Source: Escherichia coli
Lineage (GTDB): Bacteria; Pseudomonadota; Gammaproteobacteria; Enterobacterales; Enterobacteriaceae
DNA length: 64,000 bases
Assembly: GCF_003019035.1 (NCBI RefSeq)
Contig: NZ_CP027447.1
Direction: 5' to 3' (one strand)
The notes beneath the pieces are model-generated. The model saw nothing but the letters and a program-made list of their open reading frames with translations, ran no database searches and was not told the DNA's origin. The position numbers and the translations under genes are program-made. How positions within the stretch are numbered: position 1 is the stretch's first letter; every line of letters begins with the position of its first letter. Below are positions 20,747 to 55,186 of this stretch, one piece after another.

Positions 20747-23650
<2,904 letters not shown>

Positions 23651-23741
23651 ACAACGCCGAAGGTGTTTTGGCGGATGAGAGAAGATTTTCAGCCTGATAC
23701 AGATTAAATCAGAACGCAGAAGCGGTCTGATAAACAGAATT

Positions 23742-23861
23742 TGCCTGGCGGCCTTAGCGCGGTGGTCCCACCTGACCCCATGCCGAACTCAGAAGTGAAA
23801 CGCCGTAGCGCCGATGGTAGTGTGGGGTCTCCCCATGCGAGAGTAGGGAACTGCCAGGCAT
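23742..23861 (+). rRNA. rrfH: 5S ribosomal RNA
   Basis: TGCCTGGCGGCCTTAGCGCGGTGGTCCCACCTGACCCCATGCCGAACTCAG...CTGCCAGGCAT, 120 nt. Confidence 0.93.
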
Positions 23862-23913
23862 CAAATTTAGCAGTAAGCCGGTCATAAAACCGGTGGTTGT
23901 AAAAGAATTCGGT

Positions 23914-23990
23914 GGAGCGGTAGTTCAGTCGGTTAGAATACCTGCCTGTCACGCAGGGGGTCGCGGGTTCGAGTCCCGTCCGTTCCGCCA
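23914..23990 (+). tRNA. aspU: tRNA-Asp (GUC) distal to 5S
   Basis: GGAGCGGTAGTTCAGTCGGTTAGAATACCTGCCTGTCACGCAGGGGGTCGCGGGTTCGAGTCCCGTCCGTTCCGCCA, 77 nt. Confidence 0.95.
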
Positions 23991-24001
23991 CTTATTAAGA
24001 A

Positions 24002-24030
24002 GCCTCGAGTTAACGCTCGAGGTTTTTTTT
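24002..24030 (+). terminator. rRNA operon terminator
   Basis: GCCTCGAG-TTAAC-GCTCGAGG hairpin followed by TTTTTTTT. Confidence 0.75.
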
Positions 24031-24152
24031 CGTCTATATTTCTATTATTGCTTAAATCGCAAAAATCCTCTGCGTTTTACGCCCTTTTTCCGCAACATTC
24101 TAAAGCCCATAATCACTTCAGTTAACGAAAATAGCATTAAAAGAGGCATATT

Positions 24153-24956
24153 ATGGCTACCCCTGCATTTGGTTTAGGTACTTTCCGTCTGAAAGACGAC
24201 GTTGTTATTTCATCTGTGAAAACGGCGCTAGAACTTGGTTATCGCGCAATTGATACCGCACAAATCTATGATAACGAAGCCGCAGTAGGTCAGGCGATTG
24301 CAGAAAGTGGCGTGCCGCGTGATGAACTCTACATCACCACGAAAATCTGGATTGAAAATCTCAACAAAGCTAAATTGATCCCGAGTCTGAAAGAGAGCCT
24401 GCAAAAATTGCGTACCGATTATGTTGATCTGACGCTAATCCACTGGCCGTCACCAAACGATGAAGTCTCTGTTGAAGAGTTTATGCAGGCGCTGCTGGAA
24501 GCCAAAAAAGAAGGGTTGACGCGTGAGATCGGTATTTCCAACTTCACGATCCCATTGATGGAAAAGGCGATTGCTGCTGTTGGCGCTGAAAACATCGCTA
24601 CCAACCAGATTGAACTCTCTCCTTATCTGCAAAACCGTAAAGTGGTTGCCTGGGCTAAACAGCACGGTATTCATATCACTTCCTATATGACGCTGGCTTA
24701 TGGTAAGGCACTGAAAGATGAGGTTATTGCTCGTATTGCAGCTAAACACAATGCGACTCCGGCACAAGTGATTCTGGCGTGGGCTATGGGGGAAGGTTAC
24801 TCAGTAATTCCTTCTTCTACTAAACGTAAAAACCTGGAAAGTAATCTTAAGGCACAAAATTTACAGCTTGATGCCGAAGATAAAAAAGCGATCGCCGCAC
24901 TGGATTGCAACGACCGCCTGGTTAGCCCGGAAGGTCTGGCTCCTGAATGGGATTAA
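24153..24956 (+). CDS. dkgB: 2,5-diketo-D-gluconate reductase B (aldo-keto reductase)
   Basis: 267-aa [45 protein letters not shown]... (AKR family). Confidence 0.93.
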
Positions 24957-25867
24957 GCCTCTCTGACAGCTCCTCCGGGAGCTGTTTTTACATGCTCGCT
25001 AAGGAAATCGATAAAAGCCCGGATGCGCGTACTTACCGCACGGTCGCTGTAATAGACGGCACTGAATGGCATTTCCACTGGCAACACTTTATCTGCCATT
25101 AACTCCACCAATTCTCCGCGAGCGATTTCTTTGTCGATCATGTAGTCGGACAAACACGCAATCCCGTTGCCACTCAGGCAAAGCTGTTTCAGTGTTTCCC
25201 CACTATTGGATGACAAACCGTACTTCACCTCATGTAATTGTCCATCACTACAGGCTATCGGCCAGGTATTGAGGGAAGCGGGTTCAGTGAATCCCAGGCA
25301 AATATGTTGCTTTAAATCGTCGATCGTTTCTGGCTTCCCGTAGCGGGAAATATAATCGGGGGAGGCGATAATTTTTCGATAACTGTTAAATAACGGCCTG
25401 GCACGTAAGCTGGAATCCGTTAACGTACCGGCGCGTATCGCGACATCCACTTTTCTTTCGATCAAATTAATAATCGTTTCGGAGGAGACTAGTGATAAAG
25501 TGACTTCCGGATAGCGTTCACGGAAAGGCTTAATCAACGGCATCAGAAAGTGCAGCACCACTGGAGTTGCGGCATCGATGCGCAACAGTCCACGCGGTGT
25601 ATTACGCGTCTCCATAATTTCTGATTCTGCCGCTGCCATCTCCTGCAAAATTGACTGTACGCGACGAAAATAACGCTCGCCTTCTTCCGTCAGGCTAAGT
25701 TGCCGCGTGGTCCGATTAAGCAGGCTAACGCCAAGTTTCATCTCCAGCTTTTTCACCGCCCGGCTTACCGCTGAGTTTGCTTGCCCTAATTGTTCCGCTG
25801 CCCGGCTAAAGCTGCCGCTTTCGACGACCGAAACAAAAATGGCGAGTTCTTCCGACGTGGCTTTCAT
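24953..25867 (-). CDS. yafC: LysR-family transcriptional regulator
   Basis: 304-aa ORF with N-terminal HTH ([23 protein letters not shown]); convergent 4-nt overlap with dkgB. Confidence 0.9.
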
Positions 25868-29161: not shown

Positions 29162-29232
29162 GTGTGTGTCAATAGTTGCTTAAAAGACGACCGATCATAA
29201 CGGCGAACGGAGCCGATGACAAGAAAGTTTTA

Positions 29233-29991
<759 letters not shown>

Positions 29992-30744: not shown

Positions 30745-31208
30745 ACTTCGACTTGATAGCCCGTATCTTCCAGTGTGGGATTCATCGCTGCGGCACGAGC
30801 CAGTTCATCGCAACGTTCGTTTTCTGGATGACCGGCATGGCCTTTAACCCATTCCCATTTGATTTGATGCTGCCCCAGCGCAGCATCAAGACGTTGCCAG
30901 AGATCGACATTTTTTACTGGTTTTTTGTCTGCTGTTTTCCAGCCACGTTTTTTCCAGTTATGGATCCACTGGGTGATACCCTGGCGGACATACTGGCTGT
31001 CGGTACTCAAAATAACTTCGCAATGTTCTTTTAACGCCTCCAGCGCGACAATAGCGGCCATCAACTCCATACGGTTGTTGGTGGTGCGGGTGTAGCCTGC
31101 GCTAAAGGTTTTCTCGCGTCCGCGATAGCGTAAAATAGCACCGTATCCCCCCGGTCCTGGATTACCCAGACACGAACCGTCGGTGAAAATTTCTACCTGT
31201 TTAAGCAT
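30741..31208 (-). CDS. rnhA: Ribonuclease HI
   Basis: ORF 30741-31280; start set at [26 protein letters not shown]... (155 aa). Confidence 0.93.
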
Positions 31209-31272
31209 CTCTGGTAGACTTCCTGTAATTGAATCGAACTGTAAAACGACAAGTCTGACATAAATGACCGCT

Positions 31273-32004
31273 ATGAGCACTGCAATTACACGCCAGATCG
31301 TTCTCGATACCGAAACTACCGGTATGAACCAGATTGGTGCGCACTATGAAGGCCACAAGATCATTGAGATTGGTGCCGTTGAAGTGGTGAACCGTCGCCT
31401 GACGGGCAATAACTTCCATGTTTATCTCAAACCCGATCGGCTGGTGGATCCGGAAGCCTTTGGCGTACATGGTATTGCCGATGAGTTTTTGCTCGATAAG
31501 CCCACGTTTGCCGAGGTTGCCGATGAGTTCATGGACTATATCCGCGGCGCGGAGCTCGTGATCCATAACGCAGCGTTCGATATCGGCTTTATGGACTACG
31601 AGTTTTCGTTGCTTAAGCGCGATATTCCGAAGACCAATACCTTCTGTAAGGTCACCGATAGCCTTGCGGTGGCGAGGAAAATGTTTCCCGGTAAGCGCAA
31701 CAGCCTCGATGCGTTATGTGCCCGCTACGAAATAGATAACAGTAAACGAACGCTGCACGGGGCATTACTCGATGCCCAGATCCTTGCGGAAGTTTATCTG
31801 GCGATGACCGGTGGTCAAACGTCGATGGCTTTTGCGATGGAAGGAGAGACACAACAGCAACAAGGTGAAGCAACAATTCAGCGCATTGTGCGTCAGGCAA
31901 GTAAGTTACGCGTTGTTTTTGCGACAGATGAAGAGCTTGCGGCACATGAAGCCCGTCTCGATCTGGTGCAGAAAAAGGGCGGAAGCTGCCTCTGGCGGGC
32001 ATAA
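31273..32004 (+). CDS. dnaQ: DNA polymerase III epsilon subunit (3'-5' proofreading exonuclease)
   Basis: ORF 31264-32004; start at [20 protein letters not shown]... (Exo I motif DTETTG), divergent from rnhA. Confidence 0.93.
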
Positions 32005-32079
32005 ATACCTGTAAAAGGCGCTAAAAATAGCGACTTGGGCGATTTTTGCAGCAAACGATTCAAAAGATGAGAAAAACCG

Positions 32080-32108
32080 TTGACGAAGGTCGAGGCAATC
32101 CGTAATAT
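32080..32108 (+). promoter_or_regulatory. Candidate sigma-70 promoter for aspV
   Basis: TTGACG-17nt-TAATAT about 30 nt upstream of the tRNA. Confidence 0.45.
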
Positions 32109-32136
32109 TCGCCTCGTTCCCAACGGAACACAACGC

Positions 32137-32213
32137 GGAGCGGTAGTTCAGTCGGTTAGAATACCTGCCTGTCACGCAGGGGGTCGCGGGTTCGAGTCCC
32201 GTCCGTTCCGCCA
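32137..32213 (+). tRNA. aspV: tRNA-Asp (GUC), stand-alone copy; left boundary of accessory island
   Basis: 77 nt, identical to the rrn-distal tRNA-Asp at 23914-23990. Confidence 0.95.
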
Positions 32214-32243
32214 CTATTCACTCATAAAAATGAGTTCAGAGAG

Positions 32244-32273
32244 CCGCAAGATTTTTAATTTTGCGGTTTTTTT
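32244..32273 (+). terminator. Terminator after aspV
   Basis: CCGCAAGATTTTTAATTTTGCGG hairpin followed by TTTTTTT. Confidence 0.5.
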
Positions 32274-32540
32274 GTATTTGAATTCCACCATTTCTCTGTT
32301 CAATGATTTTACTCTGGCGTAAGTGCGTGATTCTCGCTTGTTGTCTCATTCATTAAAATTCAATAATGATATCGAACCATTCAGCTTAAATATATTTCCA
32401 GAGAATAAATTTATATTGATTAAATGAATGTATATTTCAAATTGATTTTGTTTGTTATTATTTAAGTGAGGTATATAATTAGAGTCCGTTATCAATGCTA
32501 AATATTCTAATCATTATGACAGGCGAGGGAGTGTCCAATT

Positions 32541-33326
32541 ATGAATTCAAAAAAGCTTTGTTGCATATGTGTGTTATTCTCGCTGCTTGCAGGATGTGCC
32601 TCTGAATCTTCTATTGATGAAAAGAAGAAAAAAGCTCAAGTCACACAAAGTAATATTAATAAAAACACTCCCCAGCAACTGACAGACAAAGATTTATTCG
32701 GTAATGAAACCACTCTGGCCGTATCCGAGGAGGATATTCAAGCTGCGCTTGATGGAAATGAGTTCCGCGTTCCCCTTAATTCTCCTGTAATACTTGTTCA
32801 ATCCGGCAACCGCGCACCGGAAACCATTATGCAGGAGGAGATGCGAAAATATTATACTGTTTCCACATTCTCTGGTATCCCGGACAGGCAAAAGCCTCTG
32901 ACTTGTAACAAAAACAAAGATAAAAATGAGAACGAGGATGTTGCCAGTGCTGAAAATATGAACTGGATGCAGGCATTGCGTTTTGTGGCTGCGAAAGGGC
33001 ATCAGAAAGCGATTATTGTTTACCATGATACGTTGCAGACAGGAAAATATGACACTGCACTGAAATCAACAGTATGGTCCGACTATAAAAATGACAAACT
33101 CACTGACGCTATCTCCCTGCGCTACCTGGTACGTTTCACGCTGGTGGATGTGGCAACAGGTGAGTGGGCTACCTGGTCGCCGGTGAATTATGAATATAAA
33201 GTGCTTCCACCATTGCCCGACAAGAATGAAGCCAGTACGACTGATATGACAGAGCAGCAAATCATGCAACTTAAGCAAAAGACCTATAAAGCGATGGTAA
33301 AAGATTTGGTTAACCGCTATCAATAA
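32541..33326 (+). CDS. yafT: Lipoprotein YafT-like, unknown function
   Basis: 261-aa ORF, lipobox LLAGCAS, AT-rich gene preceded by a very AT-rich 330-bp region. Confidence 0.75.
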
Positions 33327-33462
33327 TAAATTATATCTGCCGCCAGGAATTTCTGGCGGAAATAATACAAAATTCTTTGCATAAGAAATTTTTCTTGACA
33401 AAGACAGTGCAAGAAAGGACATGGAATCCGGAGTTAAAAACTGTTTGTTTTAGAATATTTAA

Positions 33463-33942
33463 TTATTTAACTGCTGAATCTTCCTTGCGAGAAATATATC
33501 CATTATTACATTTCATGCCATTTTTAATATAGATTGCTCCTGGGAAAATTCCCGTATTATTACCGCAGGGGTGATAATTAGTATTGACATATCCTGTGAC
33601 AAAAGGAGCTATTAAAGGTGCTATTACGATAGCTATTAGTAAAAATATAAGAGTTAGCTGTATTGTTATGTCTGTGGCGAAATTGACTACCTTCGTTTTT
33701 TTGATTAAGAATGATTTTATTATCGTAAGTAAAATTACATGAATATTTAAAAAGGAAAACGACATGAAACCGAAGCACAGAATCAACATTCTCCAATCAT
33801 AAAATATTTCCGTGGAGCATTTTATTATTGAATATAGAGGTTTAACTCCGGTAAAAAACAAAGAAGCATTGAATGCAGGGAAAAATAATATGGCCATAAA
33901 AAACATCGAAAGAAACTCTTTTAATTTAACATGTAAACGCAT
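33463..33942 (-). CDS. ykfM: Small polytopic inner-membrane protein (YkfM-like); candidate immunity protein
   Basis: 159-aa ORF, very hydrophobic with several predicted TM segments, AT-rich; 9 nt downstream of the 309-aa ORF. Confidence 0.55.
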   Translation of the reverse strand: MRLHVKLKEFLSMFFMAILFFPAFNASLFFTGVKPLYSIIKCSTEIFYDWRMLILCFGFMSFSFLNIHVILLTIIKSFLIKKTKVVNFATDITIQLTLIFLLIAIVIAPLIAPFVTGYVNTNYHPCGNNTGIFPGAIYIKNGMKCNNGYISRKEDSAVK

Positions 33943-33951
33943 GGTTAATCC

Positions 33952-34881
33952 TCATATCACGGGTGGAGTGTTAAGAACATACATAAATGGAGTCATGTTT
34001 TCCCTTTTCCATTTATCAAGTTCCTGTTGCCGTTTTAGTCCATCTCTAATTGCATATTTTAATTTTTCTGATAAATGGCATTGAGCATCGATTTCATTTA
34101 AAACAACTGTACACACTATCCCTGTCAGTAAAATTGCTCCTCCGACAAGAATTACTGGAAAGCCAAAGCTAACACAGGCAAAAGAAGCCAGGCTTCCAAT
34201 AGCGGTTGCAACACCACCGGCTATAACTGCTTTGGCCACATCCATTGAAAAATCGCCAAGAAAATTAACCAGATCTCGCTCTGAACTCATAATAAATTCT
34301 ATGGTTCTCCAGGCTACTGAAAACCAGATACAGAACTTAACTCCTTTTATTGATTCAGATAAAGCTCCTCGCCAGCCAATAGCGAGTTCCAGAACTTGAG
34401 GCGCTCGTGAAGAGAAAATATATTTACCGAGCTTTTCTAAAAGCCAGGGGCTGGATGTTGTGATTTTTATATATTTCTCTCCAAGTATTTCAAAGTAACT
34501 TGCTTTTGTATACTTTAAGGCATTAAGGTTAAATATAATTTTCCCATTGTCATCAAACTCAGTCATTAATTTACCCGCGTTAACTAACCAGGCGAGTGTA
34601 TCTTTTATACCTGAAGGATGTGTAGTGATAAAATGAATGTAATCAAATGATGTTATTGGGCTGAGTATTTTTTTTGCAACATCAAGTGTCAAGAGAATAA
34701 CATGATGAGTGTTCTGATGCCTTAACTCATCAATGAGTGGGACGTCGTTAAGATAAGGGTGCTGAGGTACTAGCTGGTTTATCGGCTGAGCCCCCCGAAG
34801 AATGTCACCCACATAATCAGCCCACTGTGCATTCTGTGTGTTGTTGTTATTCCTTAAACCAGCCATTTTATCTCTCCGCAA
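33952..34881 (-). CDS. Membrane-anchored hypothetical protein (apparent full-length YafU-like); candidate Hcp-associated effector
   Basis: 309-aa ORF with soluble N-terminal region and C-terminal Gly/Ala-rich hydrophobic hairpin (VAKAVIAGGVATAIGSLASFACVSFGFPVILVGGAILLTGIVCTVVL); 28 nt downstream of the Hcp paralog. Confidence 0.55.
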   Translation of the reverse strand: MRRDKMAGLRNNNNTQNAQWADYVGDILRGAQPINQLVPQHPYLNDVPLIDELRHQNTHHVILLTLDVAKKILSPITSFDYIHFITTHPSGIKDTLAWLVNAGKLMTEFDDNGKIIFNLNALKYTKASYFEILGEKYIKITTSSPWLLEKLGKYIFSSRAPQVLELAIGWRGALSESIKGVKFCIWFSVAWRTIEFIMSSERDLVNFLGDFSMDVAKAVIAGGVATAIGSLASFACVSFGFPVILVGGAILLTGIVCTVVLNEIDAQCHLSEKLKYAIRDGLKRQQELDKWKRENMTPFMYVLNTPPVI

Positions 34882-34909
34882 TAGTAATTTATTATGTTAT
34901 TACAGTAAG

Positions 34910-35392
34910 TTACTGTACACGATCCTGCCATTTACTCATTGCATTCGTACCGGCTAACGTATGCTCCCAGGAAATATCTTCATAAATAAAGGCAATTCTC
35001 TCCTGTGGTTCCAGTTCTTTTTCCAGGACAGCATGCGGTGTGACAAAATCAATACTTGATATTCGGGCTTTTGACAGATTTATTTTATAATAAGGCTGGT
35101 AAATACCCGCTTTACTGGTTCGGTAGAGTATAAATTCACATAATGCCATTTTTTCATTGTCACTAAGTGCTTTTGCCAGCAATGGTGAGGATTTATCAAC
35201 CGGTTTGGTGATAATTAATTCATGATGATTGACATTTTGACTTCTTGAGATGGAATGCATTAACGCATAAACCATGATCTGATCTTTATGTTCTGGCTGC
35301 GCTTTGTTTCCGACAGAATCAAGCGTTGAGCAACCTGCTGAAATTAGCCCTTGTGTCTCTCCACTCAAAGATAAATAACTTATATTTGCCAT
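34910..35392 (-). CDS. Hcp-family protein (divergent TssD paralog)
   Basis: 160-aa ORF; YLSLSGETQGLISAGCSTLDSVGN aligns with canonical Hcp YISITGQTQGNITAGAFTADSVGN at 55478; similar C-terminal ...SWEH... motif. Confidence 0.75.
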   Translation of the reverse strand: MANISYLSLSGETQGLISAGCSTLDSVGNKAQPEHKDQIMVYALMHSISRSQNVNHHELIITKPVDKSSPLLAKALSDNEKMALCEFILYRTSKAGIYQPYYKINLSKARISSIDFVTPHAVLEKELEPQERIAFIYEDISWEHTLAGTNAMSKWQDRVQ

Positions 35393-35415
35393 GATAATCT
35401 CCTTTAATTAAATAA

Positions 35416-36769
35416 TTATTTTTCGGCCGTGGTACCGGTTGCCGCCTCTGGCATGACGTTATTCTTCAGCAGCAGCCAGCGGCTTAACACGCCTTCGAGT
35501 CGCTCATTAATTTGTTTTTCCAGCGCATCTGTATTCTGCTTCTGCGCACGGGCATCCTGGTACTGCGTCAACAGAGACTCAACGGGTGTTTCCTGCCCCA
35601 GTCCCCGCTCCGCCTGCCAGATGACATTTTTGATATAGGAAAGGGTTAGTCCCTCTTTCTCGCGCTGCATCACTAGATCTGCAAAAGCATGTAAGTCCTG
35701 GCGGGTCTGCAACCAGCCACGCAACTGCGGGCTACTCTGTGCGCGGGTTTTGAGTGCCTCATTCCATTGTGTCGAGGCCTGTTGCTGTTGCAGGCTTTCC
35801 GGCCAGCGACTGTCGGCAACACGCATCATCTGCATCCCGGTTTCCAGCGGCTGTACCGGGGAGGTATCAAGAAGTTGTTGCAGCCTGCGCTCATAGTTTT
35901 CGAGTTCAGGTGAGGCCATCCACACCGTTGCTGCGCCCTGAGCGGTGTCGTTAACCTGTAACAGTTGCTGCTGCACCGGATAGACCTGCCACCACCACAA
36001 TGCTGAGGCGACAGCCACTGAACAGGCGATCCCTGCGATAAACCCTCTTACCATACTGCCTTGCTTTATCACACTGGCCTGTGGGGGATTCTCTGTCAGA
36101 CTGCGCACTTCCACTTTCATCTCAGGCAGGCCAGGCAGGGGAGGCACTACCGCTTCTGGTGTGGAAGATGCCTGTGTTTCCGGGGCATAAATCAGCGTTC
36201 TGACCGTGGTCTGTGCGGCGTTCTCAGTGTTACTCTTCAGCTGGGGTTCAAGCCGTTTACGCGTGTTCTGCATAAAATAGAGCAGATTCTCCACGCGCGG
36301 AACGCGCTTCAGTTCCACCTGCTGGAGCTTATCGCAGATAAGCTGCAATGCCCGCTCTGTGCGGTAGATCAGTGGTAGGTCGGATTCCGCAAAGGAGATT
36401 TGCTGACGCAGAATATTGCCGGTTCGGGAGTTAAACCAGTCCAGCATTTCAGTACGCGCCGGGCCGCCCTGCGGCCAGAACTTATCCCAGTCGTGGCTTA
36501 CCATTGCCGCCAGCAGTTCCGCACCTTCGCAGAATCCCGCCAGTCCCTGTGTCCGTGTCCGGGCAAGCGTATAGTAGGTGGCGGTGTGTAAATCCACACC
36601 GTTGGCTTTAAAAATCGCCAGCGCCAGCGACTCCACCAGTTTCCAGTTCAGCTCAGGCTGTGACGGGTGGCTGGCTTTGTTTATTTCCTCGCGGATGGCG
36701 CTGAATTCCGGCAGCCCGCGCGGGTCACTGCCGGTAACGATAGTTTGTGTCAGTACGTTACTATTCATC
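35416..36769 (-). CDS. T6SS-associated ImpA_N-domain membrane protein (VasL/TagA-like)
   Basis: ORF 35416-36858; likely start MNSNVLTQ at 36769 behind a GGAGG RBS; N-terminal TssA-like region (DPRGLPEFSAIREEINKASHPSQPELNWKLV...) plus one TM segment (GFIAGIACSVAVASALWWW); last gene of a V. cholerae-like cluster order. Confidence 0.7.
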
Positions 36770-36778
36770 CCTGCCTCC

Positions 36779-39700
36779 TCAGTACAGTGTGTCTGACAGA
36801 CCAAACTGGCTGAACAACCCACCGCTGAACGGGTTATCTTCCGTGTCGGTATGCACACGGTAGGTCATCGCGCCACCGTCCACGCTAAAGCGCACGGTAA
36901 AGTTGCCATCCTGTACTCCGGTCAGTTGTCCGGCCCCGAACAGGCGGAACTGCGCCCACGGCCCGCTGAAGCTGATACTGCGCGGCGCGTTGCCGCTGGT
37001 GCCGATGAGCGTCAGCTTACTTTCGTTGCCTTCGCGCATGTTGTTAGGCCAGACCAGATGGGCGGTATAGTTACGGCCCTGGCTGTAATCGACTAACTGA
37101 CCGTCAAGGTTCAGTACACTGCGGCGTTTATTGCCTGAAAGCGATACCGTTTCCACGGCAAAGGATGTTCCCAGACCGTTCTGTTTGCTGAAGAAGATGT
37201 CACGGATTTTCTGCGCAGTTTCCAGTTGCGCAATAATATCTTCGCGAATAATGACGTTGTTATCGCCGTCTTCCAGGCTCAGATCATTGTCGATAAACAG
37301 TTTCAGGTTCTGCTGGTAGAAGGTATCCAGTATGCCATCCGGTTTAAAGAATCGTTCGAAGGCATCCAGTGAGGCATCCTGTGCAGAACGTGGATTAAAC
37401 GGATAGTTATTTGCCAGTTGCTCGTTAAACGGTTTCACCACGCTGTCGCGCCAGTCCACTTCCATATAGTGAACGGCTTCCACCATCACCACATGCCAGG
37501 CCTGGTCAGCCAGCCTGCCTACCCAGCGGTTGAGCGGAGCAGGCAGTGTTTTTGCCATCTGGCGGGTGGCGAATATTGGATCGCTGCTGTTCTGATCAAG
37601 CCTTAACTGCACGGCTTTCAGCGCCGATTTCCCTGGTACAGGCGCGTTCTGGATTGCCAGCAGGTAGCGGTGTAACTCGGTGAGCTGCTGGTATACGGCC
37701 TGCATCGTGCTTTCTTTGTCTTTCTGTACTGTCAGGGTACTGTTTTCCGGGGCGAATTCATGCCCGAGGCGGGTAAGTAACTGGTAATCCGGCTCTGCCA
37801 GGGCCTCATCCCGCTCTTTGGCAGAGAGTTTTTCAGAAAAGACTCCTGGCTGTGTGTTGTCACGCAGCACGGTCAGCGCCCGCTGCAAAGGCTGGTCGCC
37901 GCTGATAACCTGCTCCAGAGTGCCAGTCAGTTGTCCAATGGACTCAAAATTGCGGATATTGAGATTGTCCATCCCGGCCCGCCAGGTGGCGGTGTAGTCG
38001 CTGATATACTGCTCGGTCAACTGGCGCTGAATTTCCGCGCGGTCGGCGTCACTGTATTTCACGCTGCGGGTGAGGTTGAGTACCCAGGAATCCATCGCCG
38101 TCAGTTCAACCAGTTCATCGCGCTGTTTTACAAAATAGCTTTGCAGGCCGTAACGGGTAAGAAACTGTGGAACAACCAGTTTGTTATCATCGGCAGATGT
38201 AAACACCTGGTCAAAGGTTGGCCCTACCTGGTCACGCAGATTGAGGTCAGCAGGAAGAACGCCCAGCGCCCGCGTTTTCAGGCTCTGATAAACCCGCTGG
38301 TAGACAGGCAGTTTGCTCAGTTCTTTCTGTGCTGATACCACGGGCTTGTCATATGGCGTCCAGCGGCTGATGGCATCACCGTCGCCCGCCTGACGCTCTG
38401 CATGCCAGTCAGTATGAGCCAGCGCGTAGTCAAGATGGGACATCAGTTGTGTCTGGATATCGCGCTGTCCGTGGAACTTTTCGCTCCAGCGTTTTGCCAT
38501 ATACTGCTTCACCACCTCATTGTTACGTCCGCTTTTGTCCTCCAGCATTCGCATCACGCGCAGCACCGCGAGTTTTTCTTCACTCTCCGGCGGCGCGGCA
38601 TTCATCGCTTTGACCAGCCCGTTAAACAGCGAGGGCAGGTAACGCTGCTCCAGAAGTTGCAGATAGGTCTGTTCCACATATGGCCCGATACGTCTCCCCT
38701 GGTACAGGCCCATATCGGCCAGACGGCTGCGCTCGCCCCAGTCGCCATAGGCCAGTGTTGCATCGCGTACCGGGTTCAGCAGTGGCAGTTGCAGGTTGCC
38801 AAAGTCATCTTCCCCCTGCGGAGGCGGCACGTCCATAAAGGCTTTGGCCTGCTTAAGCACGGTGATGCCGGACTGATAGTTACCGTTGTAATAGTGATGC
38901 CAGCCGGTGATGAGCAGCAGTGCCGCCACGCCGCCTGTGGCAGAGAAAACCGTCAGGCGGCGACGGGAACGCATCAGCCAGGCGCTGCTCTCTGTTGCCA
39001 GATTAGGCTCTGCGAGTAATGCCTGCGGGAACAGGCTGCGGGTGAAATAAGGCGCGGTGTCCACCAGAGGCCAGGACGCCAGTGGGTTATTGCCCAGTCG
39101 GTACTGGCGGGCAGCAGACTGGGTGAATATATCATCCATCTGTCCACGCTGAAGCGAAGAGGTGAGATAGACACCACGCAGCATCACGTTCATATTTTCG
39201 CCGTCAAGCAGACCCTCAAGCAGTGACACCAGCGGCTCACGGCTTCCCTGCATCTGGCGGGAAAAACTGAATAAAGACGCGCGGGTGTGAGTCTGGGTGA
39301 CCATCAGATCCGGCAACGCCAGATTCATTCGATCCACCCATGTCTGCCAGAAAGCATTCAACTCTGTTCGCCAGTCATCATTTTCATGAGCACGGCGGGT
39401 GAACGTAACACCCAGAATCGCATCGCGATCCTGTCTGTTCAGTGACTGAAACAGGGCGGCAAAACCCTGCAATAAATCAAGCCGGGTCAGTACCACGTAA
39501 ACCGGTAACTGGCAATGAAGATGCTGGCGTATATCCTGTAAGCGGCTGCGCAGCGTCTGTAACAGATGCTCGCGGCGGCGTTTGTCTGCGGTCAGCAGAT
39601 CGGGTAAATCGAGTGTCAGAATAATCCCGTTCAGCGGCTGGCGCGCGCGCTTTTCCTTCAGCCAGCCGAGGGCATGTTCCCACAGACGGCGATGCAGGAT

Positions 39701-40303
39701 ATCCGCATCAGCGGGAGCGCAGAGTGTGCCGTCGATATCAAAGATCACCGCCTGTTTACCGACATGGGGCGTGAGGTACAGGCGTTGTTCTGCGCCGCGC
39801 GCGCCCTCCGGGGCATAAATAATGTCTGACGGAAACCCCTCGCGCAGCAGTGTCGTTTTGCCACTGCCCACAGGACCGATGACCATATACCACGGCAACT
39901 GCCACAGGAAACGGCGGTTGTCGAGATGGCGTTGCAGGCGCAGCAGCCAGCGGTCGAGGTAACGCTGCTGGGCGTTCAGTTCCACACTGAGCGCATCAAC
40001 GGCTTCCTCGCGCTGTTGCTTTTGCATTTTTTCAAGCTGTTGCAGGCGCTTCATTACCCGGACGGTAAGCCACACCAGGGCAATAATCCCCCACGCCGCC
40101 GTTGCCAGCCAGCGGTTCGCCAGTGGTTTGAGCCACTGCTCTTCATACAGCGTCCATGTCGGGCCTTTCCACCAGATCCATACCAGCAGGAAAATCCACG
40201 CCAGTATCAGCAGCCAGAATGCAGAAACTTTAAACCGGGGCATCGCCGGGCGCAGGGCTGATTTGAGTTCGCTGAATAGTCGGGGTGTTGGTAATCTGAA
40301 CAC
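36779..40303 (-). CDS. tssM: T6SS membrane-complex protein TssM (IcmF)
   Basis: 1174-aa ORF, N-terminal TM segments, Walker A GPVGSGKTT. Confidence 0.93.
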   Translation of the reverse strand: MFRLPTPRLFSELKSALRPAMPRFKVSAFWLLILAWIFLLVWIWWKGPTWTLYEEQWLKPLANRWLATAAWGIIALVWLTVRVMKRLQQLEKMQKQQREEAVDALSVELNAQQRYLDRWLLRLQRHLDNRRFLWQLPWYMVIGPVGSGKTTLLREGFPSDIIYAPEGARGAEQRLYLTPHVGKQAVIFDIDGTLCAPADADILHRRLWEHALGWLKEKRARQPLNGIILTLDLPDLLTADKRRREHLLQTLRSRLQDIRQHLHCQLPVYVVLTRLDLLQGFAALFQSLNRQDRDAILGVTFTRRAHENDDWRTELNAFWQTWVDRMNLALPDLMVTQTHTRASLFSFSRQMQGSREPLVSLLEGLLDGENMNVMLRGVYLTSSLQRGQMDDIFTQSAARQYRLGNNPLASWPLVDTAPYFTRSLFPQALLAEPNLATESSAWLMRSRRRLTVFSATGGVAALLLITGWHHYYNGNYQSGITVLKQAKAFMDVPPPQGEDDFGNLQLPLLNPVRDATLAYGDWGERSRLADMGLYQGRRIGPYVEQTYLQLLEQRYLPSLFNGLVKAMNAAPPESEEKLAVLRVMRMLEDKSGRNNEVVKQYMAKRWSEKFHGQRDIQTQLMSHLDYALAHTDWHAERQAGDGDAISRWTPYDKPVVSAQKELSKLPVYQRVYQSLKTRALGVLPADLNLRDQVGPTFDQVFTSADDNKLVVPQFLTRYGLQSYFVKQRDELVELTAMDSWVLNLTRSVKYSDADRAEIQRQLTEQYISDYTATWRAGMDNLNIRNFESIGQLTGTLEQVISGDQPLQRALTVLRDNTQPGVFSEKLSAKERDEALAEPDYQLLTRLGHEFAPENSTLTVQKDKESTMQAVYQQLTELHRYLLAIQNAPVPGKSALKAVQLRLDQNSSDPIFATRQMAKTLPAPLNRWVGRLADQAWHVVMVEAVHYMEVDWRDSVVKPFNEQLANNYPFNPRSAQDASLDAFERFFKPDGILDTFYQQNLKLFIDNDLSLEDGDNNVIIREDIIAQLETAQKIRDIFFSKQNGLGTSFAVETVSLSGNKRRSVLNLDGQLVDYSQGRNYTAHLVWPNNMREGNESKLTLIGTSGNAPRSISFSGPWAQFRLFGAGQLTGVQDGNFTVRFSVDGGAMTYRVHTDTEDNPFSGGLFSQFGLSDTLY

Positions 40304-40321
40304 AAAAACTCCTGTTCTCTT

Positions 40322-41737
40322 TTATTGTTCTGCCGTGAATTTTTGTTCTAGCTGCTCAAGCAGGGACGGCTCCCAGTCTGCCACCATCATCTGCAATCCC
40401 ATCCTGAACAACATCCGGTACTGTTGCTGCGCAAGCTGTATCAGCCCCGCCTCCTCCGTCAACTGTGCGGCAAGGTACTGGCGGTGAAACTGATCGCGGG
40501 GTTCACCGGCGGGCAACGTATCCAGATACCGTAAGGCGGCTTCCAGCCCCTGTTCATCAAAACACAACCGCGCAGCCTGAATATCTTCATTACTCACCTG
40601 TATGACTGGCGCGGCCTGGTTACCTGGCTGAGTTGCAAGCCATTGCTTCGTTTTTTCAGAAACAAACGGTGTGTGGTCGTTAAACAGAAGATCGGCAAGA
40701 GCGGGCAGACGGCCAAGGAAGGAAACGACTTCATCGCGGATGGCATCGGCCACGGCGGTATAGCCAAGACGGTGCGCCGTCTGTGCAGAAATGCAGTGAC
40801 CGTCCAGCCAGTAGGGTGCCAGCAATACGCTTTTTTCCACCTGCTGCCACAGCGCCATATCGGCACTACCGAGCTGAGCATGGTAATCCGCCACCATATC
40901 GGCAGAGACCGCAGCCAGTGGGGTACGTCCATCGCTTTCCGCCTGGGGCGTACTGGTGATGGATTGCCACAGGGCATGGCGGCGGAGGCGATAGCCCAGC
41001 GGCGAGTCCGGCTGGCGTTCACATAAAATAGCCGCCACTTTTAACAGCGTGTCGCGCCAGGCTTTGTCGTCGTGACTGTCGATGGCGATCTGTAGAGCCG
41101 GAGCACTGGTTTGCGTCATGCTGCTTTCAGACGTGACGGTGGTTTGTGGTGAACTACCGGAGGCCGCCGGAGTGGGGACCGGAGCAGGAGCCGCACGATT
41201 AAACGTACGCTGGTACAGGGCAAAAAGATCATCGGTAGCCTGTGCCAGTTCCGGGACGTTATGTGACTGCCAGCACTGTGCCAGTTTCGCCAGTTCACCT
41301 AATAGCGCATCGCGCTGCGCTGTGGCGGCGTTCTGTGAAAAGCCTTCAATACCTGTTTCAAAGCGTTTAATGACCTGGCTGGCGAAGCGTTTTTTATGTG
41401 CCATATTCTGCGGCGCGGCCACCGCCCAGTAATGTTCCACATACAGTGCCAGCAGGCGCAAGGCCAGAAGCGGATCACCGGCATGTTGCAGGGTTCTCAG
41501 CAGATGCGCCAGCAGACGAAAATCCTTACTCTCCGAAGCCAGAATGACCAGCCCCCGGCGCTGGAGTTCCGGGATATCCAGTTGGCTGTGGGCCAGTGAA
41601 CCCAGTTTGACGATTTCGCCGTCGATATACTCCCAGTCCGGGTTGTCATCTTTTAGCGCCGATGCCTGTTTTTCTTCAGGCAGGTTTTCCAGCAGGTGCG
41701 ATATCCAGACATTCGGATCGCGTAAGTCCATTGCCAT
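40322..41737 (-). CDS. tssA: T6SS baseplate/cap protein TssA
   Basis: ORF 40322-41803; probable start MAMDLRDPNVW at 41737; ImpA_N-type N-terminal domain. Confidence 0.85.
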   Translation of the reverse strand: MAMDLRDPNVWISHLLENLPEEKQASALKDDNPDWEYIDGEIVKLGSLAHSQLDIPELQRRGLVILASESKDFRLLAHLLRTLQHAGDPLLALRLLALYVEHYWAVAAPQNMAHKKRFASQVIKRFETGIEGFSQNAATAQRDALLGELAKLAQCWQSHNVPELAQATDDLFALYQRTFNRAAPAPVPTPAASGSSPQTTVTSESSMTQTSAPALQIAIDSHDDKAWRDTLLKVAAILCERQPDSPLGYRLRRHALWQSITSTPQAESDGRTPLAAVSADMVADYHAQLGSADMALWQQVEKSVLLAPYWLDGHCISAQTAHRLGYTAVADAIRDEVVSFLGRLPALADLLFNDHTPFVSEKTKQWLATQPGNQAAPVIQVSNEDIQAARLCFDEQGLEAALRYLDTLPAGEPRDQFHRQYLAAQLTEEAGLIQLAQQQYRMLFRMGLQMMVADWEPSLLEQLEQKFTAEQ

Positions 41738-41741
41738 ATTT

Positions 41742-42485
41742 TTATTCTCCCGCCCAGTGGCAGGCGTCGCGTAGCGGCGCAATAACCCGTGCCAGCCCGT
41801 CAATGTTAAAGGTCAGCTTTCCGGCTGCGTTGTCTGCGCCGGTATCCACCGTCAGCGTTGTTGCGCCGAACAGTTGCTTAATTTCATCAATCCCGGACAG
41901 CCCCCGGCTGGACTCCAGCAGGGTGCCGTTCTCGCGCACAAACCAGTGGCTGCGCAATACCCGGCTGTCGGCATTCAGGGTGACGGCGATATCATGGACA
42001 TCCAGAGGGTGCACCAGCGCCACCTGCATCCGGGTGATATTGTCCACACAGCTGAACATCAGCACCGGGCGAGGCGGAACATGGCCGATAGCCGGGGTGG
42101 TTACCACCACCGTCGGGCGTTCCCCCGGCACCTGCGTCACCAGCAGCTCTGTGGTGTTGCCCTGGCGACGTTTTTCCTGCTCTATGGCACGGGTCCAGGC
42201 TTCGCCCACAAAACTGGCTTTGACCAGCGCCCCGTCAAACCCTGACGGGGACAGCGGTTCCAGCAGGCGGTCATAGCAGTCAAGCCGCTCCAGCGCCGCG
42301 AACTCCCGCCGACAGGACTGCATGGCCTGTAATGTGGCTGTCGCATCCGGCGGGGTCGCTGTGGCGACGGCTACCGCCACACCGGCCATTGACGATGTTT
42401 CTGCGGGCGCGGCACTGGCGGGTAAGCCCGCCATCAGGCCCGCAATAAACCATCCTGTCTGCCGGAAAACGCGCAACCTGCTCAT
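41742..42485 (-). CDS. T6SS-associated secreted/periplasmic protein (VasI-like by position)
   Basis: 247-aa ORF with signal peptide (…LMAGLPASAAPA); sits between clpV and tssA as vasI does in V. cholerae. Confidence 0.5.
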   Translation of the reverse strand: MSRLRVFRQTGWFIAGLMAGLPASAAPAETSSMAGVAVAVATATPPDATATLQAMQSCRREFAALERLDCYDRLLEPLSPSGFDGALVKASFVGEAWTRAIEQEKRRQGNTTELLVTQVPGERPTVVVTTPAIGHVPPRPVLMFSCVDNITRMQVALVHPLDVHDIAVTLNADSRVLRSHWFVRENGTLLESSRGLSGIDEIKQLFGATTLTVDTGADNAAGKLTFNIDGLARVIAPLRDACHWAGE

Positions 42486-45241
42486 AAAACCGTTTCATCT
42501 TCTGTGACGGACTCGTCGTCCAGAGCATCTTCCACATCTGCTGTGAACGTGCCGTCTGCCGCCGACAGCCGAATCCGGGCAATCGCCGTGTTGGCTGCCA
42601 TCTTCTGCAACAGCAGCAGGGAGAGCGGCGGCAGCATGTCGCCGTCAATGACCGATTCGAGCATCCTCGCGCCGTTTTCCGCTCGGGTGACGCGGCTCAT
42701 GATTTCGTCCGTCACTTCCGGCTCAATAATCACTTCCGCGCCAAAGCGACTGCGCAGCACGTTATCCAGACGGGTGAGTTTCCCGGCAATAATGGTGGCG
42801 AGCGTCTCTTTCGACAACGGCAGGTACGGCACCACTTCCATACGCGCCAGCAGGGCAGGTTTAAAGAAGTCCGCCAGCACCGGATAGAGGGCTTCCTGCA
42901 TGGTCTCCGGGTCATCGGCGTGTTCGACAATCACCTGGTAGCCAAGGTTGGAGGTGAGGAAGAAGACGATGTTTTTACAGTCAATCAGGCGACCTTCGCC
43001 GTCTGCCATCTCGCCCTTGTCAAACGCCTGGTAGAACAGGTTGAGGACATCCGGGTGCGCTTTTTCCACTTCATCGAGTAGCACCACCGAGTACGGTTTC
43101 TGGCGAATCGCTTCGGTCAGCACGCCGCCTTCGCCATAGCCAACGTAGCCCGGAGGCGAACCAATCAGGCGTGAAACGGTGTGTTTCTCCTGGAACTCGG
43201 ACATATTAATGGTGGTCAGGTACTGGCGACCGCCGTAGAGCAGTTCTGCCAGTTGCAGAACGGTTTCGGTTTTACCCACGCCGCTGGGGCCAGCCAGCAG
43301 GAACGCGCCGAGCGGGCGTCCCGGGCGGCGCAGGTCGGCGCGTGCAGTCAGCAGATGCTTATGCAGGCTGGCAATCGCCAGATCCTGGCCTTTGATGGTG
43401 TCGCCCAGCCATTTCGGCAGGTCGGTGATGACCGACATTTCATTCTGCGACAGGCGGTTAAGCGGAACGCCAGTCCATTCGGCAATCACCGCCGCAATCT
43501 GTTTTTTATCGACGTGCGGGGAGACCTGCAACCGGTCGTTATGCAGGGCGTCCAGTTCGGCAGTAAGCTGTGCCAGCCGTTGTACCGGGGAAACTGTTTC
43601 AGCGGTCTCTTCCGGCTGTTCGCTGCCAGCTTCATCAGCCGGTTCGGCATCGGTATTATCCTGTTCTGCCTCAGACGGCGTATCCTCCGCGGCATCTGCG
43701 TCCGGCAACGACGCCGCATCGTCTTCTGCCATACCCAGTAACTGCTGGCGCAGCGCGATAATTTCCTGTACCAGCGTCTGTTGCTGATGCCAGGCGGCTT
43801 CCAGTTCGTCCAGCGCCGTCAGCGTTTCATCATACTGCACCAGCACCTCCGTCATCCGTGAGGTGTCGGTACGCAGCCCGATGCGAAGCTCGCGCTCAAG
43901 CTGGCGAATTTCCGCCTCCTGCTGGTGGCTCAGGGTGGTCAGCGCCGAGATTTGCTTCGGTGGCGATGAAAGGTTAATGGCCACGCGGGCGCAGGCCGTA
44001 TCCAGCACATCAATGGCTTTGTCCGGCAACTGACGTCCGGAGAGATAACGCTCGCTTAATGTCGCAGCGGCCTGCAAGGCATCATCGTCAATCAGGACGC
44101 CGTGAGACTGTTCATAGACCGCCGACAGACCACGCAGAATAATGGTGGCTTCGGCGGCACTGGGTTCGCTGACCTTCACCAACTGGAAGCGGCGCGACAG
44201 GGCGGCATCTTTCTCGAAGTATTTTTTGTACTCGCTCCAGGTGGTGGCGGCGATGGTTTTCAGCTCGCCGCGCGCCAGTGCCGGTTTGAGCAGGTTGGAG
44301 ATATCCAGCCCGCCCTGCTGGTTGCCCGCCCCAATCAGGGTATGCGCTTCGTCGATAAACAGAATGACCGGCACCGGGGAGGATATGACCTCCGCCATCA
44401 GCCCCTTGAAGCGTTTTTCAAACTCACCTTTCACCGATGCCCCGGCCTGCAATGCACCCAGGTCAAGGGTCATAATGTCGGTGTTTTTCAGTTTGTCCGG
44501 CACCTGGCCTGCCACGATGCGCAGCGCCAGCCCTTCAATCAGCGCGCTTTTACCCACACCCGCTTCACCCACCACCACCGGATTGTTTTTACGACGGCGG
44601 CAGAGAATGTCGATCATCAGGTCGATTTCGTGGTCGCGGCACAGTACCGGATCAAGCCTGCCGTTACGGGCATCTTCGGTCATGTTTTTGGCGTAGCGGG
44701 CAAGCAGGGTGTCAGCAGCGTCCGTCAGTGTGCCTGCGCCTTTACCGTCTGCATCCGGCACGACTGATTCCGCCGACTCCTGTGTCCACTGCACAAAGTC
44801 CTGCTGCAGACGGTCACGGTTAATGCCGGTCAACAGCCGGGCGGCAGCAGGCGGTATATAACGCAGCGGCGAATGCAGCAGGGCCAGCAGCAACACGCCG
44901 CCGCGCAGTTCGCTGTGCTGCATCTCAGCCGACGCCAGCAGCCAGCCCTCTTTCAGCCACTCAACCAGCATCGGGGAAAACGCCGGGTAGCTGTCCGCAG
45001 AACGGGCGGTTGTGTAGTTCTCCACCGTCAGTGCCAGGCGCAACTCTTCCATGCCAATATCGCCCTGGCGGGTAATAACCCGCAGGTCACTGCGTGGCAT
45101 GGCGAGCATCTGAATAAGCACATGGCTGACGGTAATTTCCGCTGCCTGCTGGCTCATACATTCAGAGGCGGCCATCTCCAGCGCCTGGCGGGAGAACAGG
45201 TTAAGCCGTTTTACCAGCGTGGGAAGATCAATCTGGATCAT
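42482..45241 (-). CDS. clpV: T6SS AAA+ ATPase ClpV (TssH)
   Basis: ORF 42482-45355; start set at MIQIDLPTLVKRLN (45241); two AAA+ modules (Walker A GEAGVGKS and GPSGVGKT). Confidence 0.93.
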   Translation of the reverse strand: MIQIDLPTLVKRLNLFSRQALEMAASECMSQQAAEITVSHVLIQMLAMPRSDLRVITRQGDIGMEELRLALTVENYTTARSADSYPAFSPMLVEWLKEGWLLASAEMQHSELRGGVLLLALLHSPLRYIPPAAARLLTGINRDRLQQDFVQWTQESAESVVPDADGKGAGTLTDAADTLLARYAKNMTEDARNGRLDPVLCRDHEIDLMIDILCRRRKNNPVVVGEAGVGKSALIEGLALRIVAGQVPDKLKNTDIMTLDLGALQAGASVKGEFEKRFKGLMAEVISSPVPVILFIDEAHTLIGAGNQQGGLDISNLLKPALARGELKTIAATTWSEYKKYFEKDAALSRRFQLVKVSEPSAAEATIILRGLSAVYEQSHGVLIDDDALQAAATLSERYLSGRQLPDKAIDVLDTACARVAINLSSPPKQISALTTLSHQQEAEIRQLERELRIGLRTDTSRMTEVLVQYDETLTALDELEAAWHQQQTLVQEIIALRQQLLGMAEDDAASLPDADAAEDTPSEAEQDNTDAEPADEAGSEQPEETAETVSPVQRLAQLTAELDALHNDRLQVSPHVDKKQIAAVIAEWTGVPLNRLSQNEMSVITDLPKWLGDTIKGQDLAIASLHKHLLTARADLRRPGRPLGAFLLAGPSGVGKTETVLQLAELLYGGRQYLTTINMSEFQEKHTVSRLIGSPPGYVGYGEGGVLTEAIRQKPYSVVLLDEVEKAHPDVLNLFYQAFDKGEMADGEGRLIDCKNIVFFLTSNLGYQVIVEHADDPETMQEALYPVLADFFKPALLARMEVVPYLPLSKETLATIIAGKLTRLDNVLRSRFGAEVIIEPEVTDEIMSRVTRAENGARMLESVIDGDMLPPLSLLLLQKMAANTAIARIRLSAADGTFTADVEDALDDESVTEDETVL

Positions 45242-45249
45242 AAACGTCC

Positions 45250-54781: not shown

Positions 54782-55165
54782 AAAAGTGATCCGTCATGTT
54801 ATCTCGTACAGGCCATGAACACGGCATATTTGTACCGAAAAAAAATATCGGCAATGCCGCCCTAATGGCGGTGAAAATAAAATCACCACTCCTTCATCAC
54901 CCCGCATTCTACGCTTCAAAATAAATAAGAAAAGGACTTTTTATCGATCGTAAAGAGGGGTATTCTGCAAGCGTTAAATAGATTGTGTGAACCTGTGCAA
55001 TTCGCGCCAGGTGTATTATGGCAATAATTTAAATATAGAGCTTTTATGTAACTTATTGAATTATATAATAATTTCATTAAACATAAGCTAATCTGATGAT
55101 TGCTTGTTTATATATTTGTTTTGTGATTGATTAAGTGGGTATTTTTAAGGAATATCTCAAAAATT

Positions 55166-55186
55166 ATCAAAATGATAATTCAGAAA
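55166..55186. promoter_or_regulatory. Weak Fur-box-like sequence in the tssB/hcp divergent control region
   Basis: AATGATAAT core matches the central 9 nt of the Fur consensus GATAATGATAATCATTATC; about 11/19 overall. Confidence 0.25.

Follow-up and report, generated by a model that had tools for sequence, protein, structure and literature searches.

The lipoprotein gene yafT of Escherichia coli K-12 follows the tRNA-Asp gene aspV and is among the K-12 genes still without known function; the gene itself, the lipoprotein nature of its product and the silencing of its locus are already known. Among the transcriptionally silent, extended protein occupancy domains of K-12 is the yafT locus: a lac promoter inserted into it is silenced, and the silencing is relieved once the domain is replaced (PMC4191405). 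Other reporters inserted at the locus took the lowest rank under every growth condition tested (PMC9561378). The silencing data come from K-12, a strain that has no type VI secretion system (T6SS) (PMC4191405, PMC9561378). The Salmonella island SPI-20, described in S. enterica subsp. arizonae, is a T6SS island at aspV that lacks flanking direct repeats; its guanine-plus-cytosine (GC) content is 55-60% overall, with low-GC (~42%) regions of unknown function, and its "first ORF" (open reading frame) has been regarded as unrelated to T6SS function (PMC2907695). To judge from its position, and from an ImpA-like gene two ORFs further in, this first ORF would seem to be a YafT homologue; on other Salmonella contigs a 71%-identical YafT stands beside VgrG and Rhs genes. 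For E. coli, the IMT5155 genome paper implies that yafT is core DNA flanking the aspV T6SS island (PMC4232414). The locus described here is positions 32214-33326 of a 64,000-nucleotide stretch of an E. coli chromosome (contig NZ_CP027447.1 of assembly GCF_003019035.1), the whole of which is referred to as the window. Used as a DNA query, 32214-33326 is 98.8% identical to K-12, and the K-12 gene under the match is annotated "lipoprotein YafT". It is thus the same gene in the same position after aspV, but K-12 carries it on the stump of an island, whereas in the window it lies beside a complete T6SS.

The reading preferred here, and held with slightly better than even confidence, is that 32214-33326 is the left-end module of a T6SS island of ~32 kb that sits directly behind aspV. 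That the terminator, the spacer and yafT are island DNA is very likely from the sequence comparisons. That YafT also has a T6SS-related function is plausible, if somewhat short of an even chance. The features on which the argument turns are the following.

32137-32213, + strand: aspV, tRNA-Asp(GTC), the core-genome anchor (ARAGORN; Rfam, 67.7 bits)
32220-32272, + strand: terminator region, with a small hairpin at 32220-32235 and a main hairpin at 32238-32272 that contains CCGCAAGATTTTTAATTTTGCGG, the main one from the terminator scan
32273-32540, + strand: AT-rich non-coding spacer with the yafT regulatory region, 268 bp, 29% GC, defined by composition
32452-32479, + strand: predicted sigma-70 promoter from a promoter scan, with -35 TTGTTA at 32452-32457, a 16-nt spacer, -10 TATAAT at 32474-32479 and a predicted transcription start near 32486
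32525-32531, + strand: ribosome-binding site GAGGGAG, 9 nt ahead of the yafT ATG
32541-33326, + strand: yafT, 261 amino acids, from the ORF and the K-12 match

The position of the boundary between core chromosome and island carries most of the weight. Upstream of aspV lies dnaQ (31264-32004), the host sequence being E. coli chromosome, and aspV itself is 100% identical among all compared E. coli loci. Genomes that lack yafT match the window through the tRNA and ~7 nt beyond it (to position 83-84 of a query that starts at the tRNA), which places the core/island boundary within ~7 nt of the aspV 3' end. Among 5426 complete E. coli genomes, 4269 (79%) have yafT, at identities from ~83% to 100%, and 757 have an empty aspV-yafV junction from which terminator, spacer and yafT are all absent; in strain 4/0, for example, yafV begins 98 bp after aspV, with a different terminator hairpin between them. 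The initial annotation of this DNA had proposed comparing strains with and without the T6SS, and yafT proves to be missing exactly where the island is missing, at the 757 empty junctions. A second comparison, to the B2 strain SF-166, gives 97-100% identity from yafS through aspV; beyond it the terminator is at 92%, the spacer at 73%, yafT at 83%, and vasL and tssM at 76%. Because the empty junctions lack all three elements, and because identity falls off past the tRNA, terminator, spacer and yafT are all variable DNA. Synonymous divergence (dS) follows the same line, at 0.057 for dnaQ, 0.20 for rnhA, 0.60 for yafT and 1.0-1.26 for vasL, tssM and tssA; by these measures yafT diverges with the island and not with core genes. 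The ratio of nonsynonymous to synonymous divergence (dN/dS) is 0.19 for yafT and 0.12-0.17 for tssM, tssA and vasL (0.17 in both vasL and tssA), values that place yafT under purifying selection.

Composition agrees with this placement. The initial annotation had called yafT an AT-rich lipoprotein gene, and so it is: its GC content is 42.6% and its GC at third codon positions (GC3) is 0.435, both distinguishable from core DNA (GC ~50%; dnaQ GC3 0.563). Values for the T6SS structural genes lie on the other side, with GC 56-63% and GC3 0.60-0.72. The low GC of yafT is common to hcp and the cargo genes beside it, so that the left arm of the island as a whole runs at 29-43%. The locus shows three hallmarks of a tRNA-linked island, namely insertion at a tRNA 3' end, deviant composition and presence/absence polymorphism; the other two, an integrase and a direct repeat of the tRNA 3' end at the far border, were not found. 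No integrase is annotated in the island of SCU-301, a strain 99.99% identical to the window, and the window contains no second copy of the aspV 3' end besides the tRNA-Asp gene at 23914-23990. In SCU-301 the island runs for ~32 kb from aspV to yafV and closes with vgrG, an Rhs element and the insertion sequence (IS) ISEc1; the corresponding right border, at the yafV flank, lies beyond the end of the window.

A terminator hairpin directly behind the tRNA had been reported in the initial annotation. Its presence holds: the main hairpin has 16 pairs followed by a T7 run in the consensus terminator scan, and it folds at -22 kcal/mol (z = -4.7), a value reached by none of 200 dinucleotide shuffles. 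The hairpin is supplied by the island, however, and is not the ancestral terminator of aspV. SF-166, whose B2 island is divergent, conserves it at 92%, and in the empty-site genomes its place is taken by a different hairpin, CCCGAATCATTACTGATTCGGG. This second hairpin is probably the ancestral aspV terminator, because it resembles the hairpin behind aspV in Pseudocitrobacter. A third hairpin follows aspV where another island, with CbtA/YeeU-type genes, fills the site. By these comparisons (with 9078-9120 of locus L054 and 9078-9115 of locus L055), aspV gains a new terminator with each insertion, the hairpin varying with the occupant of the site, and the terminator in the window belongs to the island rather than to ancestral aspV.

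The spacer is as the initial annotation described it, ~270 bp of very AT-rich non-coding DNA; the 266 bp from 32275 are 28.9% GC, which falls in the lowest 0.9% of 266-bp segments of the 64 kb. When 31000-35000 was searched against Rfam at a permissive threshold, the tRNA was the sole match, and the spacer therefore has no known RNA family. A 49-amino-acid ORF on the - strand (32346-32495) was dismissed, since spacer alleles differ by indels. The predicted promoter matches 10 of 12 consensus positions and was the top-scoring site in the scan. An alignment that covers E. coli alleles, E. whittamii and E. albertii shows the -10 hexamer and the ribosome-binding site preserved throughout, with a one-base difference in the -35 hexamer, although the spacer overall is 56-68% identical across these sequences; its promoter-proximal part is a little better conserved, at 76-87% vs 65-68%, among the E. 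coli alleles and E. whittamii. Two spacer alleles, ~70% identical and several indels apart, occur in E. coli, and strain HB-Coli0 has the alternative spacer beside a 98.5%-identical yafT. Because spacer and yafT alleles combine independently, recombination breakpoints are implied near the yafT start. A 27-nt stretch of the spacer (32317-32343) is identical at 21 of 27 positions to part of the yafT signal-peptide coding sequence (32563-32589); the match goes no further, its score was equalled by 1 of 500 shuffles, and it may be the relic of a duplicated gene start or chance.

Horizontally acquired AT-rich DNA is usually silenced by nucleoid proteins such as H-NS. The window sequence, at 29-43% GC and 98.8% identical to the K-12 locus, is comparable to silent occupancy domains of the H-NS type, and the spacer would likewise be silenced by such proteins. 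Membership in the island accounts for the silencing of the K-12 yafT locus, which behaves as foreign DNA. On record for this region, too, is a site at K-12 position 238050 that binds RpoS holoenzyme in vitro; its listed place is between aspV and ykfM, at yafT.

Beyond yafT the island continues with the following genes.

33463-34881, - strand: variable cargo slot between yafT and hcp, from the ORFs
33463-33942, - strand: ykfM, whose product has three hydrophobic segments (ORF, hydropathy)
33952-34881, - strand: gene for a 304/309-amino-acid protein with a Gly-rich transmembrane hairpin at residues 213-261 (ORF, hydropathy)
34910-45244, - strand: T6SS operon of hcp, a vasL/tagA-like gene, tssM, tssA, vasI and tssH (Pfam, NCBIfam and the SCU-301 RefSeq annotation)
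47353-47874: TssJ, 174 amino acids, with the Pfam domain T6SS-SciN, a gene separate from yafT

The ORFs thus place yafT on the + strand and the T6SS genes on the - strand, as the initial annotation had it, and yafT is convergent with ykfM, the 304/309-amino-acid ORF, hcp, the VasL/ImpA_N gene, tssM, tssA, vasI and tssH. Further T6SS genes extend to the window end: tssL, tssK, tssJ, tagH, tssG, tssF, tssE, tssC, tssB, hcp2, vgrG and rhs.

How firmly yafT and the T6SS are joined within E. coli was judged from a population sample of 60 genomes, evenly spaced among 4187 that matched a query running from yafT to vasL. The arrangement of the window (yafT, ykfM, 309-amino-acid ORF, hcp, vasL) was present in 36 of them; five were O157-like and carried other cargo, a DUF1311 protein among it, and seven were B2-like, with hcp immediately behind yafT. 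Thus hcp-vasL is still beside yafT in 48 of the 60 sampled yafT-positive genomes. The remaining 12 were truncated, six in the manner of K-12 and six otherwise, and those inspected were linked to IS elements. Where IS1 had removed the T6SS left arm, yafT was lost along with it. Neither an intact aspV T6SS without yafT nor a yafT at an otherwise island-free site was found in the 60-genome sample or the inspected loci.

K-12 itself keeps yafT, ykfM and the C-terminal third of the 309-amino-acid ORF, which is fused to a truncated ISAs1-family transposase directly ahead of yafV (9250-10371 of the K-12 locus L002, compared with 33463-34881 of the window). The intact island of SCU-301 has a full ISEc1, which is ISAs1-like, where K-12 has the ISAs1 fragment. 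This comparison suggests that the K-12 T6SS was lost through an IS-mediated deletion, and by sequence the K-12 set of yafT, ykfM and truncated ORF is the stump of a deleted T6SS island.

The linkage extends well beyond E. coli. A species survey was made by pattern scan of one genome per GTDB species with a 13-sequence YafT alignment, its reach being the Enterobacterales; it returned 35 loci, of which 30 were informative, all of them found by searching with YafT. At 25 of the 30 informative loci the yafT homologue has T6SS genes no more than 10 kb away. The linked clusters are almost always convergent with yafT and run in the order hcp/vasL, tssM, tssA, vasI, tssH. What stands on the other side of yafT varies: tRNA-Asp in Escherichia, Pseudocitrobacter, Superficieibacter and Hafnia; tRNA-Phe in Lelliottia and Trabulsiella; tRNA-Ser(gga) in Yokenella, Citrobacter werkmanii, Enterobacter asburiae and Phytobacter ursingii; tRNA-Asn in Atlantibacter; and no tRNA in many others. 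The YafT homologue of Buttiauxella izardii and that of Atlantibacter are at the opposite end of the cluster but still terminal. Separate contig look-ups in Salmonella, Hafnia and Lelliottia agree on the linkage, which is retained in deeply divergent clusters such as those of Budvicia (YafT 40%, TssM 50% identity) and Phytobacter massiliensis (YafT 34%, TssM 49%). Pairwise YafT identities correlate with those of TssM, VasL and TssA (r = 0.74, n = 20, reached in 0 of 2000 permutations), the correlation with TssM leaning on two very divergent loci. Such co-localisation across taxa, at no fewer than four tRNA sites, is one of the marks of a T6SS-associated accessory gene (Tag), and it makes yafT a long-standing edge gene of the hcp-vasL-tssM-tssA-vasI-tssH type of T6SS, with some exchange at the edge.

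That exchange can be read from a YafT sub-lineage, ~52% identical, which adjoins T6SS genes that are 76-86% identical; because of this disparity, yafT appears to have been exchanged at the island edge. A second YafT lineage, at loci L035, L038, L039 and L041, is 44-54% identical to the YafT of the window, with neighbouring T6SS genes 66-86% identical to those of the window. Citrobacter sp. wls619 and Superficieibacter electus each have two YafT-family loci. Taken as a whole, these patterns suggest that yafT alleles have been exchanged between islands.

The protein itself can be described from its sequence and from an AlphaFold2 model built on an alignment of 50 diverse relatives. The model has a mean predicted local distance difference test (pLDDT) score of 79.6, with a core above 90.

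Residues 15-19: lipobox LLAGC at the end of the N-terminal signal peptide, with the Cys19 codon at 32595-32597 (from sequence)
Residues ~20-45: disordered Lys-rich tether (AlphaFold2 model)
Residues 46-229: alpha/beta domain with two short N-terminal helices (AlphaFold2 model)
Residues ~113-140: charged insertion of low confidence (AlphaFold2 model)
Residues 230-260: long C-terminal helix of 30 residues (AlphaFold2 model)

The lipobox fits the pattern [LVI][ASTVI][GAS]C, and its Cys is at least 90% conserved among the 50 family members. The residue at +2 is Ala, and Asp occurs at +2 in no aligned member shown. Because Asp is absent from +2, the enterobacterial Lol rule predicts the outer membrane as the destination, where YafT would hang from the inner face on a tether of ~25 residues. 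Other columns that are at least 90% conserved include Q87, S88, G89, P93, R147, W179, R194, D203, W209, K245 and Y249.

The modelled alpha/beta domain resembles a group of outer-membrane lipoproteins with the TolB-N-like fold. Fold-match figures are highest for LptE (9.3-10.0) and PelC (9.1-9.7), followed by CsgG (8.4), a flagellar LPHT-ring protein (8.3), HpaA (8.0), the TolB N-domain (7.5), TraT (7.1), LpoB (7.0) and PqiC (6.7), and Foldseek independently returns the LPHT-ring protein, PelC, GNA1162, FlgT, Cj1090c and LptE. These matches are at superfamily level, with 8-14% identity, no sequence-family match and marginal Foldseek E-values (1e-4 to 1e-2); on the model, YafT has an LptE/PelC/FlgP-like fold, which it has in common with CsgG, GNA1162, LpoB, PqiC and TraT as well. 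To that common fold YafT adds the two N-terminal helices, the charged insertion and the 30-residue C-terminal helix, and its genomic partner is the T6SS and not lptD, pel, csg or flagellar genes. It is not a recognisable member of any of the better known families: neither YafT nor the 50 relatives match LptE in Pfam or NCBIfam, and the neighbours are T6SS genes rather than lptD; yafT is not part of a pel operon with PelB as partner; and YafT has no T6SS-SciN/TssJ domain. TssJ is also an outer-membrane lipoprotein of the T6SS island, but it is a separate gene here and of another family, whereas YafT folds in the LptE/PelC manner. Searches of the local Pfam and NCBIfam with YafT gave no family, only a sub-threshold match of the signal peptide to Lpp/OprI. 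The local Pfam copy was without the PF25851 model; homologues 65-98% identical to YafT all carry the precomputed label PF25851, by which YafT is assigned to that family. A PDB sequence search at E<=10 gave no match. Some YafT records bear the label "aminopeptidase", which was rejected as unsupported, there being no peptidase-like fold or family match.

An exhaustive, profile-free search for the YafT family gave 164 cluster representatives at E<=1e-3. Relatives at 25-35% identity are mainly metagenomic, the labels on the three named records being Verrucomicrobia, Deltaproteobacteria and Acidobacteria. No neighbouring gene is shared among the distant relatives that lie on long contigs. Fold and family thus predate the association with the T6SS, and since these distant relatives stand alone without a T6SS, the ancestral function is not T6SS-specific.

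Proteins with the LptE-like fold work with trans-envelope partners, as with LptE in LptD, PelC under PelB, the FlgP-type rings and PqiC. The island's left-end module would, on the preferred reading, supply the tRNA with its terminator and the island with an AT-rich, silenced yafT promoter region and yafT itself. The product would hang tethered at the inner face of the outer membrane and act, like other proteins of its fold, as a non-enzymatic structural partner of a trans-envelope machine. That machine would be the outer-membrane end of the T6SS, which YafT might dock, stabilise or shield by protecting the envelope. The non-enzymatic structural role is proposed because of the fold, and the T6SS role because of the linkage. 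In its most specific form the proposal makes YafT a conserved but hitherto unrecognised part of the VasL/VasI-type T6SS of enterobacteria, located in the outer membrane and perhaps oligomeric, as PelC, FlgP or PqiC are. At the outer membrane or cell wall it would dock the TssJ-TssM tip or keep it stable; alternatively, it would shield the envelope while the system fires. This form is tentative and rather unlikely. The cluster's TssL is a bare DotU domain, with no peptidoglycan-anchoring domain shown.

Several observations weigh against a dedicated T6SS role, and most of them favour a YafT that serves the envelope in general, apart from secretion (in the homeostasis of outer membrane or peptidoglycan, for example), and is carried along at the island edge whenever the island moves, an alternative that is doubtful yet has to be taken seriously. 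The main argument is the stand-alone distant family: on long contigs the distant relatives are single genes in housekeeping surroundings, with no T6SS. Moreover, yafT has its own promoter and is transcribed separately, from the opposite strand; K-12 lineages retain it intact after loss of any T6SS; and at five of the 30 enterobacterial loci the 10 kb around yafT contain no T6SS gene. T6SS genes correlate with one another at r = 0.94-0.95, tighter than the 0.74 of YafT, so that co-divergence is looser than among true T6SS genes, and the ~52% sub-lineage and the superfamily-level fold matches count on the same side. Against a passenger, however, the linkage endures at four or more insertion sites and down to 34-40% YafT identity, and it does so although a gene-replacement hotspot separates yafT from hcp. 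Some of the loci without a T6SS look like islands in decay: at L043 a truncated yafT stands beside an IS110-type element and an Rhs-like ORF, and L034 has neighbouring genes in common with L043. The dN/dS of yafT is also close to that of the T6SS accessory genes. The initial annotation had offered "a periplasmic accessory of the island" as one possibility, and this fares well as to location (a lipoprotein, with the fold to match) and as to T6SS linkage, but less well as to exclusivity, given that the distant family occurs without a T6SS.

The cargo slot between yafT and hcp bears on a different alternative. Its contents change among strains: DUF1311-containing cargo in O157-type strains, nothing in B2, and in K-12 a slot cut by ISAs1. 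In the window, YkfM and the 304/309-amino-acid protein, neither of which has a Pfam or NCBIfam match, look like an Hcp-linked effector/immunity pair, with the K-12 copies as relics. Immunity proteins against T6SS effectors that act in the periplasm are in many cases small lipoproteins whose genes lie in T6SS islands, and YafT, which adjoins the effector slot and persists, in the manner of orphan immunity genes, where a working T6SS is lacking, might be supposed to neutralise an effector of its own or a neighbour's T6SS at the periplasmic face. This is improbable, for yafT stays constant while the adjacent cargo changes or is missing, is neither co-oriented nor co-transcribed with any candidate effector, and so lacks the adjacent, co-oriented and co-varying relation to an effector that typifies a T6SS immunity gene. 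The YafT family is also widespread in phyla and contexts without a T6SS, its fold matches include no known immunity protein, and YkfM, a membrane protein encoded directly after the 309-amino-acid ORF, is the more obvious immunity candidate.

That yafT and its leader are core DNA, or an older independent insertion at the aspV hotspot as the initial annotation had also suggested, with the T6SS island arriving later and downstream, can be set aside as very improbable: the 79% prevalence of yafT in complete E. coli genomes and its 42.6% GC beside structural genes at 56-63% speak for it, but identity to B2 drops right past the tRNA and not past yafT, the empty-site genomes lack yafT, spacer and terminator together, low GC is found in the neighbouring hcp and cargo genes too, yafT diverges and disappears together with the island, and, because other genera have the same pairing of yafT with the T6SS at tRNA-Phe, tRNA-Ser and tRNA-Asn (with tRNA-Asp, four tRNA genes in all) as well as at sites without a tRNA, an older insertion specific to aspV is contradicted.

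The preferred reading, that of an island left-end module, has several consequences. No functional study was found in a search on yafT, PF25851 and aspV T6SS lipoproteins; nor were three of the present descriptions found in the literature searched, namely yafT as E. coli island DNA rather than core flank, yafT as a conserved terminal T6SS gene across genera and insertion sites, and the LptE/PelC-like fold of YafT. Moving the island border to the 3' end of the tRNA changes how such islands are delimited. YafT becomes a candidate member both of the T6SS-associated accessory genes and of the LptE-like outer-membrane lipoproteins. Should the conserved linkage be functional, a widespread enterobacterial T6SS would gain in YafT a new accessory part at the outer membrane (the product of a "tag" gene) whose fold is also that of caps and plugs of other trans-envelope machines, and a K-12 gene of unknown function would be explained as the relic of a lost weapon. 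If the linkage is not functional, yafT would be an ordinary passenger lipoprotein and the locus routine island anatomy.

Some further features of the window deserve mention. Between the convergent yafT and ykfM lies a perfect 7-bp hairpin, listed here with its position.

33340-33359: hairpin CCGCCAG-GAATTT-CTGGCGG between yafT and ykfM, from direct reading of the sequence

It has a T-run on neither strand and is absent from the calls of the terminator scan, but from its place it may serve as a transcription stop between the two genes. In the SCU-301 RefSeq annotation, tssH, vgrG and the Rhs core are marked as frameshifted (for tssH, window 42482-45244 on the - strand was compared with 22269-25027 of the SCU-301 locus L001). 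The window copy of tssH aligns to an intact homologue without a change of frame, and vgrG (56206-58314) and the rhs ORF (58381-61989) likewise form long open frames there; where the window and SCU-301 differ, at few positions, one of the two assemblies may therefore be in error. Three low-GC patches occur elsewhere: 29200-29600, at 35% GC, in the core region upstream of yafS; 54381-55867, in the divergent tssB/hcp2 intergenic region; and 61941-63987, behind the Rhs core.

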